Positions 19,838 through 47,947 of a stretch of DNA of 64,000 nt are shown piece after piece. A model generated the notes under the pieces. It did no database searches. It was not told where the DNA came from and worked only from the letters and a program-made list of their open reading frames with translations. This stretch comes from a virus (lineage: Duplodnaviria; Caudoviricetes): positions 11,909 to 75,908 of IMG/VR virus record IMGVR_UViG_3300021411_000005; one strand, given 5' to 3'. A program made the position numbers and the translations under genes. Numbering within the stretch: position 1 is the first letter of the stretch; every line of letters begins with the position of its first letter.

Positions 19838-20311
19838 ATGGCTGCGCGCATCAAGGCCATTGAGACCCAGTACGCGGGGTGCCGGTTCCGGTCCCGCCTG
19901 GAGGCCCGCTGGGCCGTGTTCTGGGACACCCTGGAGTGGCCCTGGGAGTACGAGCCGCAGGGGTTCGCCCTGCCGTCGGGCAACTACCTGCCGGACTTCC
20001 GGGTCCACGTCCCGGACAGCTCGAACGGGCCCGTGTGGTTCGAGGTGAAGCCGCCCGGCGTGCCGGACGACCCGCGGTGGCCGGAGCTGGCCGCCATGAC
20101 GGACGCAATGATCATCGTGGCCAAGGGCATGCACCGGTCGGGGGATTCGTGCAGGAGCGCGCACACCGCTGACGCGTACAGCGGGACGGCGGTCGGCAGG
20201 GACCTCAAGCTGTGGATGCACAGCCCTGCGGCGGCCTGGGACGCGGCGTCCGGCGCCCGGTTCGAGCACGGGGAATCGCCGGTCACCCGGCGCGGCCGGA
20301 GGAAGCGGTGA
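19838..20311 (+). CDS. PD-(D/E)xK-like nuclease
   Basis: FRSRLEARWAVFWD...WEYEPQGF...YLPDF...WFEVKP. Confidence 0.7.
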   Translation: MAARIKAIETQYAGCRFRSRLEARWAVFWDTLEWPWEYEPQGFALPSGNYLPDFRVHVPDSSNGPVWFEVKPPGVPDDPRWPELAAMTDAMIIVAKGMHRSGDSCRSAHTADAYSGTAVGRDLKLWMHSPAAAWDAASGARFEHGESPVTRRGRRKR

Positions 20312-23300
20312 CGGCCGCCGCGGTGACGGAGGTCTCCCCCGTCCATGCGGAGGAACTGGCATCGAGCTGCATCGGGGCGGACCACATCGCAGCGCGCGGC
20401 TACCGCACGCTGTACGGCAGCGACGACGACCGGGCGGAACTGAAGACCCTGCGGATCCCGCGGTTCATGTGGCGCCACGACACGGCGTTCCCCGGGCTGC
20501 TCATCCCGGAGTACCGGGTGACCGGGGAGCTGATCGGCTACCAGTGGAAGCCCGCGGTCCCGCAGCGGAACTCCGACGGGAAGCCGGTGAAGTACGCCTC
20601 CCAGTCGGGGACGCCGAACCACCTGGACATCCCGCCGCTGGTCAGCGACAAGGTAAGGGATCCCAGCAATCCGCTGTGGATCACCGAAGGCGTGAAGAAG
20701 GCGGACTGCCTGGCCACGCTGGAGAAGGCCGTCATCACACTGACCGGCGTCTACAACTGGCGGAGCAAGCTGGGCACGCTGGGGGACTGGGAGGACATCC
20801 CGATCCAGGGGCGGACCGTCGTGGTCTGTTTCGACTCCGACGCGCGCAGCAAGCGGCCGGTCATGCTGGCCATGCGCCGTCTGGGGCTCTGGCTCCAGTC
20901 CAAGGGCGCCGCGGAGGTCCGGTACCTGATCGTCCCCTCCGAGGTTCCGCAGGGGGAGGACCGGGCCGCCGTTGAGGTCAAGGGCGTGGACGACTACTTC
21001 CACGCCGGGGGAACCCTGGAGGATCTGGGGGGCCACGCGGCGCGGGAGCTGCCGGTGGACGGCGCACGGGACGCGGCCTTCTCGGACGCGGTCCTGGCCG
21101 ACACGGTGTGCAGTGAGGAGCTGGAGGGCCAGTACAAGTGGTCGTCCGGCCTGGGCTGGATGGTCTGGACGGGGAAGTTCTGGAAGAGCGCGGAAGACGT
21201 CACGGTGACCGAAGCCGTACGGCTGTGGGTCCTGTCCCAGTTCCACCGGGTGATCGACCTCCAGGGCGCGGACCCGAACCGGGACATGCGCTCCCAGATC
21301 GATGGCTGGCGCAGTGCGCTGGCCGCGTCCAAGCTCAGCAGCCTGGTCAAGCTCAGCCGGGGAATCCTGGAGTGCGACGCATCGGATTTCGACTCCGATG
21401 CGGACGTCCTGAACTGCCCGAACGGCATTCTGGACCTGCGCACGGGCGTGCTGACGACGCACGACCCGGACCGGCTGATGACGAAGATGGCCGGGGTGGA
21501 CTACGTCAAGGGCGCGCAGCACCCGGACTGGGACACTGCGCTGACCGCCCTGCCCGCCGATGTCCTGGAGTGGTTCCAGCTCCGCATCGGACAGGCCCTG
21601 ACCGGCCACCTGACCCCGGACGACCTGGCCGTCATCTGCCAGGGAGGCGGGGAGAACGGCAAGTCCACGGTCTTCAACGCGCTGACCACGGCCGCGGGGA
21701 AGTACCACATCACCGTGGCGGACCGGGCGATGCTGGGCAACGCCAGCGACAACCACCCCACGGAGATGACCGATTTCCTGGGTGCACGGTTCGCCATTCT
21801 GGAGGAGACCCCGGAGTCCCGGCGGCTGGACACCAACCGGCTGAAGAAGCTGGTCGGCACCCGGGAGATCACCGCCCGGAAGATCCGGCAGAACGACATC
21901 ACGTTCACCACGACACACAGCCTCTTCGTGAACACGAACTTCCGCCCGGTGGTGGATGAGACCGACCACGGGACCTGGAGGCGCCTGGCGCTGCTCATCT
22001 TCCCGTACACGTACCGGAAGACCCCGGCGGAGGTTCTGGGGCCCCAGGACCGCCTGGGGGACGGCGCGCTGCGCCAGCGGATAGAGACCCAGCCGGTCAT
22101 GGAGGCCGCACTGGCCTGGGCCGTCCAGGGCGCTCAGCGCTGGTACGACATGGAGCGGATCATGCCGGACATGCCGGACCGGGTGCGGGGGGACACCCTG
22201 GGGTGGCGGAAGGAGAGTGACCCGGTGATGACCTTCGTGGACGAAGAGATCGTGTTCGATCCGGACGCTTTCATCATCGGCTCAGAACTACGGAGCGTGT
22301 TCAACCACAAGATCACGGAGAAGGGCGGCCGGGAGTGGGGCGACAAGACGTTCAGCGCCCGTTTCGGGGGCCATGACCTGGTGGTTCAGCACGGTGTGGA
22401 GTACAAGGTCACCAAAAACGGAACGGGCCTCTCCACCCGCCTGCGGAACCCCTCTTCGGCGTCCACCGTACGAGCCTGGCGAGGCGTCCGATTCTCCGAT
22501 CCGGACGCCGAAACAGGGGGTGGGGCTGAGAACGACCCATTTGGAAAATCCCCGGTCGGAGGGGGTAACCAAGATCAGGTTACGGCAGTTACATCTGCGC
22601 CGATAAGCACAAATCCTGGATCTCGCATAGAGGTTAACCGCCAACGTGTAACTGCTGTAACCGATCTTGAAATCACCCTTCCCAGCGATCAAGGAAATGA
22701 GGAAGAATTGGAGAACTCGATCATGCTTCCCGATGATCCTTTCGGTGAGGCGGAGGACCCCCCGGCCGCTGTGTGGGAGGGCCCGCTGCCGGACCGGGTG
22801 ACATTCGACCTGGAGACCGCTTCGGCCGACGAAATGTTTACTTACGGTGACGGTTTCGTCCGGCTGGCGGGCTTCGCGGCCGACGACGGAGAACCGCGCA
22901 CCGGGGTGGATATCGGGCAGCTTGTCTGGCTGCTGGAGCGCGTCCCGTCGGCCAGCCACAACGGCATGCAGTTCGACGGTCCGGCGCTGGCCTACCACCA
23001 CGGGATGGACTGGGAGAAGTTCAGCGCGCTGGCGGAGGACACGGAGATCAAGGCCCGGCTGGCCGACCCCCCGCGGTCCAAGGAAACCGGCGGGTCGGAC
23101 GACAAGTACGACCTGGACCACACCGCGGAGAAGCTGGGGGTCCGGGGCAAGACCGACAGCGCGAAGCGGCTGAAGAACAAGTTCGGCGGCTGGGACCGGA
23201 TCCCGCAGGACGACCCGGAGTACCACGCCTACCTGTCGGGTGACGTGGAGGCCGGGCGCGCGGTGGACCGCCTGCTCCCCGTCACGGAGTACGGGCGCCG

Positions 23301-24513
23301 GGAGCACCGGCTGGCCGGGCTGGCCGGGCGGATGACGCTGAACGGGTGCCGGGTGGACGTCCCGCTGCTGAAGGAGCGGATCCGGGAGGGGCAGGAGAAG
23401 AAGGCTTCCGCCCTGGAGGCGCTCAGCGGTACCTACAGCCTCCCGCTGGGCCGTGAGGTGATGCGGGGCCGCGGGAAGGCGAAGGCGCCCGCCTGGGAGC
23501 CGTTCAGCTCCCCGCTGGCCACTACGGAGGGCGGCGCCTGGCTGGCCGACCTCTGGAAGCAGTTCGGCGTGGTCCGTCCCCCGCGGACTCCGAACGGCAA
23601 CCTGTCCACCGCCGCGGAGCGGCTGAAGGAGGTGGCGGAGAACAGGCACTGCCCGCCGGAGCTGAAGACCGCGCTGGAGCTGATGGGGATCGTCACCACC
23701 ACCAGGACCGTCTACCAGACCGTGGAGAAGTACCTGACCGTGGAGGGGCGCGTCCATCCGACGGTCAGCATGCGGCAGGCGTCCGGCCGGTGGTCCGTCA
23801 CCAAGCCGGGTCTGACCGTCTTCGGCAAGCGGGACGGCCGCCACATCGAACGGGACGTGATCGTCCCGGAGGAAGGCCACCTCCTGGTGACCTGTGACCT
23901 GGCCCAGGTGGACATGCGCGCCGTGGCCGCGCACTGCCAGGACGAGAACTACATGCAGTTGTTCGAGCCCGGCCGGGACGCGCACGCGGAGATTGCGGCG
24001 CTGATCGGGGTGTCCCGGCAGGACGCCAAGCCGCTGGGCCACGGCTACAACTACGGCATGGGCCGTGCCCGGATGAAGCGGGACGGCCACGATCCGGAAC
24101 TGGTGGACGCGTTTTTCGACGGCATGGAGAGCCAGTTCCCGGTCAAGATGGCGTGGACCAAGGACGTCATTGCCCGGGGCACCGCCGGGGAGCTGCTGGA
24201 CAACGGGTTCGGCCGGATGATGCGCTGCGACCCGCGGTCGGCCTACACCGTGGCGCCCGCGCTGATGGGCCAGGGCGGCGCCCGGGACATCACCTGTGAA
24301 GTGCTGCTCCGGCTGATCGACCGGCACCCGGAGTACCAGCCCTACCTGCGCGCCTACGTCCACGATGAGTTCGTCTTCTCCGTACCGGAGGACCGGGCGG
24401 AGGAGATCGGGGCGGAGATCAAGGACGCGTTCACCTGGGAGTGGAAGGGTGTGCCGATCCTGGCCGACCTGTCCGGCCCGGGTCCGTCCTGGGGTGCGGT
24501 GAGCGCGAAGTGA
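20308..24513 (+). CDS. Trifunctional replication protein: DUF3854-type TOPRIM primase + P4/D5-type SF3 helicase + family A DNA polymerase (with 3'-5' exonuclease)
   Basis: Single 1401-aa ORF: WITEGVKKAD, CFDSD, KGVDD; GGENGKST, AILEE, FVNTNFRP; FDLET, HNGMQFD, YLSGDV; CDLAQVDMR, RQDAKPLGHGYNYG, YVHDE. Confidence 0.9.
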   Translation: MTAAAVTEVSPVHAEELASSCIGADHIAARGYRTLYGSDDDRAELKTLRIPRFMWRHDTAFPGLLIPEYRVTGELIGYQWKPAVPQRNSDGKPVKYASQSGTPNHLDIPPLVSDKVRDPSNPLWITEGVKKADCLATLEKAVITLTGVYNWRSKLGTLGDWEDIPIQGRTVVVCFDSDARSKRPVMLAMRRLGLWLQSKGAAEVRYLIVPSEVPQGEDRAAVEVKGVDDYFHAGGTLEDLGGHAARELPVDGARDAAFSDAVLADTVCSEELEGQYKWSSGLGWMVWTGKFWKSAEDVTVTEAVRLWVLSQFHRVIDLQGADPNRDMRSQIDGWRSALAASKLSSLVKLSRGILECDASDFDSDADVLNCPNGILDLRTGVLTTHDPDRLMTKMAGVDYVKGAQHPDWDTALTALPADVLEWFQLRIGQALTGHLTPDDLAVICQGGGENGKSTVFNALTTAAGKYHITVADRAMLGNASDNHPTEMTDFLGARFAILEETPESRRLDTNRLKKLVGTREITARKIRQNDITFTTTHSLFVNTNFRPVVDETDHGTWRRLALLIFPYTYRKTPAEVLGPQDRLGDGALRQRIETQPVMEAALAWAVQGAQRWYDMERIMPDMPDRVRGDTLGWRKESDPVMTFVDEEIVFDPDAFIIGSELRSVFNHKITEKGGREWGDKTFSARFGGHDLVVQHGVEYKVTKNGTGLSTRLRNPSSASTVRAWRGVRFSDPDAETGGGAENDPFGKSPVGGGNQDQVTAVTSAPISTNPGSRIEVNRQRVTAVTDLEITLPSDQGNEEELENSIMLPDDPFGEAEDPPAAVWEGPLPDRVTFDLETASADEMFTYGDGFVRLAGFAADDGEPRTGVDIGQLVWLLERVPSASHNGMQFDGPALAYHHGMDWEKFSALAEDTEIKARLADPPRSKETGGSDDKYDLDHTAEKLGVRGKTDSAKRLKNKFGGWDRIPQDDPEYHAYLSGDVEAGRAVDRLLPVTEYGRREHRLAGLAGRMTLNGCRVDVPLLKERIREGQEKKASALEALSGTYSLPLGREVMRGRGKAKAPAWEPFSSPLATTEGGAWLADLWKQFGVVRPPRTPNGNLSTAAERLKEVAENRHCPPELKTALELMGIVTTTRTVYQTVEKYLTVEGRVHPTVSMRQASGRWSVTKPGLTVFGKRDGRHIERDVIVPEEGHLLVTCDLAQVDMRAVAAHCQDENYMQLFEPGRDAHAEIAALIGVSRQDAKPLGHGYNYGMGRARMKRDGHDPELVDAFFDGMESQFPVKMAWTKDVIARGTAGELLDNGFGRMMRCDPRSAYTVAPALMGQGGARDITCEVLLRLIDRHPEYQPYLRAYVHDEFVFSVPEDRAEEIGAEIKDAFTWEWKGVPILADLSGPGPSWGAVSAK
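22578..22662. repeat. 16-bp inverted repeat in an AT-richer patch inside the replication gene (candidate origin)
   Basis: GGTTACGGCAGTTACA (22578-22593) and TGTAACTGCTGTAACC (22647-22662) match 15/16 as reverse complements; 53-nt spacer; extra GGTAACC and GGTTAACC nearby. Confidence 0.75.
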
Positions 24514-25222
24514 TCGAGAGAGAGAGAGAGAGAGCGGTGTCCGGCCCCGGATCCTGGATCTTTTCGGAGGCGGAGGCGGGGCCGCCATGGGGTACCACAT
24601 GGCTGGATGGGATGTGACCGGCGTGGACCTGGCGCCGCAGCCCAACTACCCGTTCCGGTTCGTCCAGGCCGATGCGCTGACCTTCCCACTGGACGGCTAC
24701 GACGCTGTTCACCTGTCCCCGCCCTGCCAGGGGTACGGGCGGCTGCGGCACCGGTCGGGCGGGAAGGTCTATCCGCGGCTGATTGCTCCGATGCGGGAAC
24801 GCCTCTTCCGGGAGGCGCCGGACATGCCGTACGTGATGGAGAACGTGGAGGACGCGCTGCCCCATCTGATCAGTCCGGTGATGCTCTGCGGGTCGTCGTT
24901 CGGCCTTCGGGTGCGTCGACACCGGTATTTCGAAACGAACTGGAAGCTGGTCCCGGTCGGCTGCGATCACGGCTGGCAGGACAGGCACAAGCCCTACCGG
25001 CTGTACGTCGGCAAGGCCCGGACCAACGGGCTCGGGTATCGGGAGAGCGGGATCCAGCAAGTGTTCGGCGGTAACCACAACGTGGGCGGCCGGTCGCACT
25101 TTTTCAAGTCGGTGGCCATGGGGATTGACTGGATGACTGAAACCGAGCTGAACGAGTCGATCCCTCCGGCGTACACCGCTCTGGTGGGAACACAACTGAT
25201 GGAGCTGGTGAGTGCGAAGTGA
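24510..25222 (+). CDS. Compact C5 DNA cytosine methyltransferase, out of frame at its 5' end as sequenced
   Basis: Motif I RILDLFGGGGG lies upstream of the first in-frame ATG (24587) with no in-frame start; SPPCQ, ENV, RRHR and ESIPP motifs intact; coupled GTG at 24510 comes into frame if one GA is lost. Confidence 0.85.
24516..24534 (+). repeat. (GA)9G simple sequence repeat
   Basis: 19-nt perfect dinucleotide tract immediately after GTG ATC. Confidence 0.95.
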
Positions 25223-46594: not shown

Positions 46595-47947
46595 GTGGCG
46601 GTCGCGTTCACGAAGAAGGCTTCCGGCCAGTCCGGAACCGCATCCACCACCATCACTCTCACGCTGGCATCTGCTCCGGCGGCCGGGAGTTTCCTGCTCT
46701 TCGCCATGGCCGGGGACAAGAACACCGGAGCCCTGACACTCAGCGGCTGGACGCAGCTCTTCACCCTGAACTCCACGTCGGTGTCCCTGTACTTCTGGTA
46801 CAAGGTCTCCGACGGGACCGAGACGGCCATCTCCCCGTCCTGGGCCAGCTCTTCGGCCACCGGCAATGCTGCCTGGTACGGAGAATTCGATGACGCGTCC
46901 GTAGGCGGGAACACCTGGCAGATCTCCGGCCAGGCCAGCCACAATACGGATGAAACCAACGTCACCTCCTGGTCCACCGGGACTACCGGGACCATCTCCG
47001 CGGCCGGGCTGGCCGTAGCCGTCATCACCATGGATTCCGCGGACTCCGTGGTGGACGGGACCACGGCGTGGACCAACAGCTTCGCCTCCCTGTTCACCAC
47101 CCTGGCCAGCGCGGGCGCGCGCGGCGGTCTCCACATGGCCGACCTTCTGGTCAGCTCCGGCGGTACCACGGAGACCACCTTCAGCTTCACTGCGTCCACC
47201 ACGCTGCGGGACCAGCTCTCCGGCGCCATCGCGGTCATCACCAAGGTGGCATCCGGGACCAGCGCGCCCGCCGGGCAGGGCGCGGCCACCGGAGCGGCCC
47301 AGGACGCCTCCGCCGCGCTGGCTGCGCTGCCGGATGCACCGGCCGCCGCGGGAGCTGCCCAGGACGCCTCCACGGCGCTGGCTGCGCTGCCGGACACTCC
47401 GTCGGCCGCGGGCTCCGCACTCGGTTCTGTTGCGGCTGTGTCGGCGCTGCCGGATGCACCGGCCGCCGCGGGAGCTGCCCAGGACGCCTCCACGGCGGCC
47501 GGTGCGCTGCCCGGTGCCCCCACGGGCTCCGGCGCCGCGCAGGACGCCTCCGCCGCGCTGGCCGTACTGCCGGACACTCCGTCCGGCGCGGGCGCTGCGC
47601 TCGATGCCACCGCGGTGGCCGGGACACTGGCCCTGCCGGGAACCGCGGCCGGAACCGGCGCCGCGCAGGACGCCTCCACGGCACTGGCCGTACTGCCGGA
47701 CACCCCGTCGGCCGCGGGTACGGCGTACGGCGCCATCGGATCCAGCTCCACTACGGCGCTGGCCGGGCTGGCAGCCGGTACCGGCACGGCGTACGGCGTG
47801 AACCAGGGAGCGCCCCAGACACCGCTCCGGGTCCGGGTGCACGGCCGGGAGCCGGTCGGCAGGGCCGGAGGAACGGAGCCGGTATCGTCGTGGTCGGGGA
47901 GAGAGCCCGCTGACCGGGCCTTCGGAGAGGAACTGGGGACGCCGTGA
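46595..47947 (+). CDS. Fibre-like structural protein with 20-aa tandem repeats
   Basis: S/T-rich N-domain, then about 8 units like GAAQDASTALAALPDTPSAA. Confidence 0.7.
   Translation: MAVAFTKKASGQSGTASTTITLTLASAPAAGSFLLFAMAGDKNTGALTLSGWTQLFTLNSTSVSLYFWYKVSDGTETAISPSWASSSATGNAAWYGEFDDASVGGNTWQISGQASHNTDETNVTSWSTGTTGTISAAGLAVAVITMDSADSVVDGTTAWTNSFASLFTTLASAGARGGLHMADLLVSSGGTTETTFSFTASTTLRDQLSGAIAVITKVASGTSAPAGQGAATGAAQDASAALAALPDAPAAAGAAQDASTALAALPDTPSAAGSALGSVAAVSALPDAPAAAGAAQDASTAAGALPGAPTGSGAAQDASAALAVLPDTPSGAGAALDATAVAGTLALPGTAAGTGAAQDASTALAVLPDTPSAAGTAYGAIGSSSTTALAGLAAGTGTAYGVNQGAPQTPLRVRVHGREPVGRAGGTEPVSSWSGREPADRAFGEELGTP
47270..47780 (+). repeat. Intragenic ~60-bp tandem repeats
   Basis: gccggatgcaccggccgccgcgggagctgcccaggacgcctccacggcg recurs exactly 120 bp apart; other units are degenerate. 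Confidence 0.85.

Follow-up and report, generated by a model that had tools for sequence, protein, structure and literature searches.

A GA-repeat tract at the start of a compact C5 methyltransferase gene: a candidate on/off switch in an uncultured actinophage

We consider here a short simple-sequence tract, (GA)9G, at the junction of a replicase gene and an orphan gene for a C5 cytosine methyltransferase (MTase) in the IMG/VR virus record IMGVR_UViG_3300021411_000005. The window, by which we mean the whole stretch of DNA that was analysed (64,000 nucleotides, nt), comprises bases 11909-75908 of this record, which is 75.9 kb long, has a GC content of 68% and an estimated completeness of 92%. 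The stop codon of the replicase gene, TGA 24511-24513, is overlapped by a GTG start codon at 24510; this GTG is followed by ATC and then by (GA)9G, and the MTase frame adjoins. An allele is called ON if the start codon and the MTase lie in the same frame, and OFF otherwise. The features at the junction, including the relevant open reading frames (ORFs), are as follows.

20212-24513, plus strand: replicase ORF of 1433 amino acids (aa), a fusion of DUF3854/TOPRIM-like, D5_N, DUF5906 and family A polymerase (ORF list; Pfam PF12965, PF08706, PF19263 and PF00476).
24510-24512, plus strand: GTG start codon in a GTGA stop/start overlap, the sole canonical start able to feed the MTase frame via the tract.
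24510-24617, plus strand: 35-codon ORF from GTG 24510 to TGA 24615-24617, the putative OFF-state product as sequenced (translation of the start frame).
24516-24534, no strand assigned: (GA)9G simple-sequence tract of 19 nt, the proposed slippage switch (sequence, Tandem Repeats Finder and Markov-1 simulation).
24536-25222, plus strand: predicted compact C5 cytosine-MTase frame of 228 codons (phrog_363 match, motifs, AlphaFold2/Foldseek, and the ratio of nonsynonymous to synonymous divergence, dN/dS).
24537-24539, plus strand: GTG one base out of the MTase frame, an unsupported alternative start (the relative L034 has TTG there and reads through in frame).
24587-24589, plus strand: internal ATG past motif I, the first ATG of the MTase frame, at which public gene callers start a 211-aa product (P0001).

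A first-pass annotation of this sequence had taken the downstream frame to encode a complete C5 methyltransferase, and the phrog_363 match, the conserved motifs and the predicted fold agree in pointing to that identity. The 228-residue product matches phrog_363, ‘DNA methyltransferase’, with E=2.8e-27, and it matches more than 300 actinophage MTase genes at 42-49% identity. Motif I, the FxGxGG loop that binds S-adenosylmethionine, is present as LFGGGGGA at 24560-24583, with G14 and G15 invariant in an alignment of 26 sequences; motif IV, which carries the catalytic cysteine, is present as PPCQ at 24719-24730, with P62, P63, C64 and Q65 invariant in the same alignment; and motif VI is present as ENV at 24839-24847, with E102 and V104 invariant and N103 nearly so. 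The profile of these 26 sequences aligns motifs I, IV and VI with those of the prophage MTase 3g7u and of M.HaeIII: motif I is aligned to 3g7u and 1dct, and PPCQ to the PPCQG of 3g7u. The sequence match to MTases in the PDB is confined to residues 6-107, and toward the C-terminus IPPAYT resembles motif X.

The AlphaFold2 model of the product has a pLDDT of 94 and a pTM of 0.90, and the best folds that Foldseek finds for it are DNMT3A/B, M.HaeIII, M.HhaI, 3g7u and Dnmt2 (probability 1.00, query TM-score 0.6-0.69). On this model, the product is a member of the C5-MTase fold. At 228 aa it is ~100 aa shorter than M.HhaI, and it is credible, as a predicted enzyme, for a compact C5-MTase in which the recognition region is very small.

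The frame that encodes the MTase extends without a stop from 24503 to the TGA at 25220-25222. As the first-pass annotation had remarked, it offers no start ahead of motif I: no ATG, GTG or TTG occurs in frame 5' of that motif, where there are only ATC 24551 and CTG 24554, and the first ATG is the one at 24587. The rest of that description also agrees with the sequence, namely the GTG overlapping the polymerase stop, the ATC, the (GA)9G and the 35-codon peptide that ends at TGA 24615. The distance from GTG 24510 to a conserved CGG at 24542 is 32 nt, and therefore the loss of one GA unit or the gain of two would put the start in frame with the MTase, just as had been proposed. With the flanks of this genome, the permissive tract lengths are 8, 11 or 14 units, and the window has 9.5. 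An ON allele would read the tract as alternating Glu-Arg.

The tract is the sole period-2 array that Tandem Repeats Finder reports in the window. The earlier statement that it is the only long dinucleotide tract in these 64 kb in fact extends to the whole 75.9-kb genome, in which the next longest dinucleotide array measures 10 nt and no homopolymer of 7 nt or more occurs. In 100 Markov-1 simulations the longest array had a mean length of 10.4 nt and a maximum of 14 nt, as compared with the 19 nt observed. The tract is a perfect repeat inside a reading frame, and it is far longer than expected by chance.

Five genomes, the window included, share a common layout, in which a start codon overlaps the replicase stop and is followed by the tract and then by (S/V)RPR(I/L)LDLF. 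The four relatives are diverged, with an MTase nt identity of 74-80%. At the overlap position the start codon is GTG/ATG in L003 and L034, and ATG in L114. The tract, the distance from the start to the CGG and the resulting frame are given below for each genome.

Window: tract of 19 nt; start-to-CGG distance 32; out of frame.
L003 (84% aa identity): (AG)17, 34 nt; start-to-CGG distance 44; out of frame, sharing the window's phase.
L034/L116 and L115 (two assemblies): (AG)11, 22 nt; start-to-CGG distance 33; in frame, reading MSRERERERVVRPR...
L114: (AG)11, 22 nt; start-to-CGG distance 30; in frame, reading MIKRERERESRPR..., the JGI call P0002.
L117: interrupted tract; start-to-CGG distance not applicable; in frame, a ‘locked ON’ form.

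The relatives do carry other GA counts: one has 17 units and is out of frame, two have 11 and are in frame, and a further one has a decayed tract that is likewise in frame. The ON protein that the first-pass annotation had predicted is matched by the in-frame relatives, which read MIKRERERESRPRLLDLF and MSRERERERVVRPRLLDLF. In these assembled sequences the repeat number varies from one related genome to another, and a gene that is otherwise intact is in frame in some and out of frame in others.

In L003 the OFF frame runs for 38-39 codons, up to the equivalent TGA. In L117 (2947-3043), the replicase stop is followed by an insert of ~55 nt with a GC-rich hairpin and its own AAGGAG and ATG, and the interrupted tract, GATAGAGGGAGAGAGAGAGGGAGC, still echoes an ancestral GTGATC...GAGAG leader. 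The more distant L004 (67% identity) lacks a tract and starts at a plain ATG. A scan of IMG/VR with the DNA pattern AGAGAGAGAGAG...GGCCCCGG returned L003 only, plus two unrelated matches (L129 and L130).

In L003 the MTase frame is also open back into the replicase gene, and an in-frame GTG (2893) lies 105 nt 5' of the RPR codons; this GTG is a possible, unconserved alternative start, and the window has a stop codon (24500-24502) instead. A fusion of replicase and MTase by frameshifting was considered and rejected: in the window the MTase frame is closed by that same TGA, three codons before the replicase stop, and the phase from replicase to MTase is +1 in the window and in L003 but -1 in L114.

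It is important to consider whether the frame observed in the window is an error of sequencing or assembly. The true tract might have 8 units. Otherwise, GTG 24537 would become the start of an ordinary MSRPRIL if a C had been missed near 24541; the first-pass annotation had itself named a one-base error near 24540. Dinucleotide runs do give library stutter, and L003 has TCCCGG where the window reads TCCGG. However, the Logan assembly of run SRR7012006, an independent one, has 100% identity across 3636 nt, with the tract and the downstream TCCGG included, so that the length of the GA tract is not the assembler's choice. Moreover, L034 and L115 have the TCCGG spacing of the window (...GTC CGG CCC CGG in L034) and read through it in frame from an upstream ATG, and L003 is independently out of frame at another tract length. 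An error of either kind is thus disfavoured, and we regard it as highly improbable.

Alternatively, the MTase might always be ON, from a non-canonical start 3' of the tract (ATC 24551 or CTG 24554), in which case the GA run would be an untranslated purine-rich leader. Both codons are in frame just ahead of ILDLF, where homologues start, and the alignments with homologues begin near that residue. But L003 has CTT CTC at those codons, so that a start there is not conserved; L034 and L114 have an upstream ATG whose frame runs through the tract into the MTase; and the tract ends 17 nt before the ATC, which is too distant for a Shine-Dalgarno role. We consider a start of this kind extremely unlikely.

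The MTase bodies of the tract-bearing genomes have 71-80% nt identity, and all of them are open over ~225 codons. For all pairs of bodies, dN/dS lies between 0.11 and 0.19, at a dS of 0.74-1.27, and for the OFF/OFF pair formed by the window and L003 it is 0.157. These comparisons indicate strong purifying selection on the MTase bodies, OFF alleles included. Because the OFF/OFF ratio is 0.157 and the frames stay open over ~225 codons, the OFF alleles do not appear to be decaying pseudogenes; a plain pseudogene, the other alternative that the first-pass annotation had named, is disfavoured at such a ratio (0.16).

AGA, the arginine codon of the tract, occurs only inside it: the replicase and MTase body (20212-25219, 1659 codons) have 131 Arg codons, and none of them is AGA. 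For a perfect stretch of 19-34 nt, the probability of neutral persistence at the divergence given above is ~1e-3 to 4e-6 per lineage. Since neutral survival is so improbable, and since AGA is otherwise unused, we conclude that the repeat is kept as DNA and not for its codons.

Repeats of other kinds occur elsewhere in the MTase family. For example, L118 (Logan SRR14843452, 1921-1965; 73% identity) has a terminator, an AGAGGG ribosome site and a GTG at 1931, followed by (GACC)7; as assembled it is out of frame, and it would be in frame with 6 or 9 (GACC) units. In L119, which comes from a second run and has the same protein as L118, the contig begins inside the repeat (1-30), perhaps because the tract there is longer or heterogeneous. 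In L174 (101-130), ATG AGT is followed by (AC)5.5, in frame, giving MSTHTHPK. The protein P0021, known from the protein alone, has the N-terminus MDTHTHTHT, implying ~9 (AC) units; close relatives of P0021 and of P0008 were sought in IMG/VR, and none were found. Within the gene of L054 (44% identity) there is an in-frame (AG)8 (2056-2071), which reads NREREREL just ahead of the conserved MGIDWM motif and is a possible internal switch.

Altogether, six of the eight distinct long repeats in 212 loci (827 kb) fall in MTase genes. Other members of the family have independently acquired different repeats at this same end of the gene. No repeat was present at the gene start in 43 genomic homologues (mostly Streptomyces) or in ~30 more distant viral contigs.

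Catalogue proteins that start at the internal Met of MGY were considered as further OFF alleles and rejected, for they are mostly gene-caller artefacts with ordinary in-frame starts upstream (ATG in L120/121, TTG in L122-127, ATG in L175-177, ATG in L178 and GTG in L218); among them L118 is the sole true repeat case. Because gene callers truncate genes at an internal Met, repeat switches are invisible in protein catalogues. As to the surroundings of these genes, the phages with P0013 have a tRNA-like stretch (GGTTCGAATCC, L122:1885-1925) just 5' of the MTase gene, with TerD and dCMP deaminase genes 3' of it. The Streptomyces contig L146 (2144-2250) has 62 G followed soon by 34 C, ~250 nt 5' of its MTase homologue, close to where the contig ends, and these runs are probably an assembly or end artefact.

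With these results in hand, we can weigh the suggestion that the tract is a mutational hot spot without an evolved switch, that is, an accident-prone run in a dispensable gene, whose OFF alleles are recent dead ends. It is consistent with the fact that two of the four genomes with perfect tracts are out of frame, and with the L117 lineage, which manages without a perfect tract. It is at odds with the OFF/OFF dN/dS of 0.157 for two ORFs that are otherwise intact, with the fact that perfect tracts last across a dS of ~1 though built from an otherwise avoided codon, and with the independent origin of different repeats at the same gene end elsewhere in the family. We consider a mere hot spot unlikely.

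The shared phase of the two OFF alleles brings up a different possibility, namely recoding, in which either a two-base slip of the ribosome at the rare AGA or a stutter of the RNA polymerase would let the OFF alleles make a low, set amount of MTase. Both OFF alleles would require the same shift (-1/+2), a two-base slip on a dinucleotide repeat should restore perfect codon-anticodon pairing, and AGA is otherwise absent from the replicase and the MTase body. In E. coli, rare Arg codons promote frameshifting. On the other hand, L034, L114 and L117 are in frame and need no shift, so that the frame of the start relative to the MTase varies; the RNA 3' of the tract has neither a stable nor a conserved structure (z-scores from -1.2 to +1.0 in four genomes); the tetranucleotide repeat of L118 would require another shift; and the shared phase of two alleles is weak evidence, with p ~0.5 given that both are OFF. 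Recoding in place of a DNA switch is quite unlikely.

The two ideas could also be combined in a two-level device, which we hold to be very unlikely. Slippage of the DNA would set the frame, and in out-of-frame genomes ribosomes would stall at the otherwise unused AGA and slip by two bases; pairing would be perfectly restored on the dinucleotide repeat, and a set, low level of MTase would result. If such a device existed, the -1/+2 phase of both out-of-frame genomes would follow from the two-base slip of the ribosomes.

The explanation we favour, with a probability of roughly 0.7, is that (GA)n is a slipped-strand contingency locus that switches an orphan C5-MTase, and that the locus has been caught here in its OFF state. 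According to this explanation, translation would begin at the GTG coupled to the replicase stop, and the tract would be read as a Glu-Arg leader of variable length that precedes strand 1 of the Rossmann fold. The catalytic domain would be reached only at those tract lengths that put the start and the MTase in frame. GA units would be gained and lost during replication of the phage DNA, so that progeny would move between ON and OFF; the window genome, with its 9.5 units, would be OFF and would yield the 35-residue peptide. Dinucleotide repeats of such length slip often, and actinobacteria, to our knowledge, lack MutS/MutL. High-frequency, reversible switching would then be expected within one population.

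Several observations weigh against a contingency locus. The window and L034 each show a single, identical tract length in two independent assemblies. The distribution of frames, with 2 OFF, 2 ON and 1 locked ON, comes from five genomes, all that were found of the tract-bearing GA clade, and is anecdotal. Both OFF alleles have the same phase, with the MTase in the -1/+2 frame of the start, and this is what recoding predicts likewise. As for the enzyme itself, the window protein matches no Pfam family at E<=0.01; PF00145 gives precomputed or weak matches in some relatives.

The nature of the host bears on what such a switch might be for. The closest matches of the window replicase are the replicases of Streptomyces phages, at an identity of only 28%, and the MTase homologues in genomic sequences are nearly all from Streptomyces. 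Because the replicase resembles those of Streptomyces phages and the genomic homologues come almost entirely from that genus, we take the source to be, in all likelihood, an uncultured phage of high-GC Actinomycetota that is distant from every isolate. A search of the 92%-complete record for an integrase (PF00589 and PF07508), by which a temperate lifestyle might be judged, gave no match.

A contingency locus in such a phage could pay off as bet-hedging, in two ways: methylated progeny would resist restriction-modification by the host, and unmethylated progeny would escape methyl-dependent (Type IV) restriction, for which Streptomyces offers good documentation. For example, ScoMcrA, a Type IV enzyme of S. 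coelicolor, cleaves methylated DNA (PMC3009677). If this account is true, it would make sense for a phage to produce mixed progeny against hosts like Streptomyces, in which classical restriction-modification is found together with strong methyl-dependent restriction. The persistence of the repeats across deep divergence, together with their several independent origins, points to selection for mixtures of methylated and unmethylated progeny.

Some features of the neighbouring sequence should also be recorded. The same replicase gene is found 5' of the MTase in L114, L117, L120 and L217 as well, and in L114, L117 and L120 it is the same fusion, of 1300-1484 aa. Elsewhere in the window, the stretch 47287-47718 holds tandem repeats (periods 60 and 120 nt, 3.5-5 copies, ~70% matches), which are GC-rich and probably coding.

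We found nothing relevant in the literature on a phase-variable MTase in an actinophage. The nearest known genes are the phrog_363 MTases of Streptomyces, Mycobacterium and Gordonia phages (such as Faust gp6 and Malisha gp85), which belong to the same family, with 42-49% identity over more than 90% of their length, and share the compact C5-MTase core; they differ in having ordinary starts of the M(x)RPRLLDLF type and no repeat at the start. With regard to mechanism, the 7C tract of glpK in Mycobacterium tuberculosis undergoes reversible slippage frameshifts in a high-GC actinobacterium without MutS/MutL. That case concerns a short homopolymer in a chromosomal metabolic gene, whereas ours concerns a phage gene for an MTase.

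Repeat-driven switching of MTases is textbook knowledge in host-adapted bacteria, whereas cases in phages are only now emerging, and with short homopolymers. Contingency loci have been described at homopolymer runs in T2 agt and T4 rIIA (Gomez, Barrick, Waters, bioRxiv 10.1101/2025.10.21.683753), and the same study cites poly-G tracts in the receptor-binding genes of Fletchervirus and in a methylase gene of phage ‘BBP-1’; it makes no mention of dinucleotide repeats, of methyltransferases in general or of actinophages. Like the locus studied here, T2 agt and T4 rIIA have a slippage-prone repeat in a phage gene, and there the frameshifts are reversible and the progeny mixed. T2 agt is likewise a DNA-modification gene, and its OFF state evades modification-dependent defence. 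The loci of T2, T4 and the Campylobacter phages are short homopolymers whose switching has been measured, while our data are comparative only; and in contrast to the runs of T2 and T4, the arrays reported here are long, perfect di- and tetranucleotide repeats in uncultured actinophages.

The closest parallel in bacteria is the phasevarion, known from the Type III mod and Type I hsd MTase genes of Haemophilus, Neisseria, Helicobacter and Moraxella (review PMC13076061). There, as here, a perfect simple-sequence repeat lies in the 5' coding region of an MTase gene, and the number of its units, which varies among relatives, sets the frame. The two differ in that the carrier here is a virus and not a host-adapted bacterium, the gene product is a 228-aa orphan C5-MTase where the bacterial enzymes are Type III Mod or Type I HsdM, the repeated unit is the dinucleotide GA although the genome has 68% GC, and the expected effect is protection of the phage's own DNA and not control of a regulon. 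In the strict sense, that of a bacterial Type III or Type I MTase controlling a regulon, this locus is not a phasevarion; as proposed, it works like a phasevarion switch.

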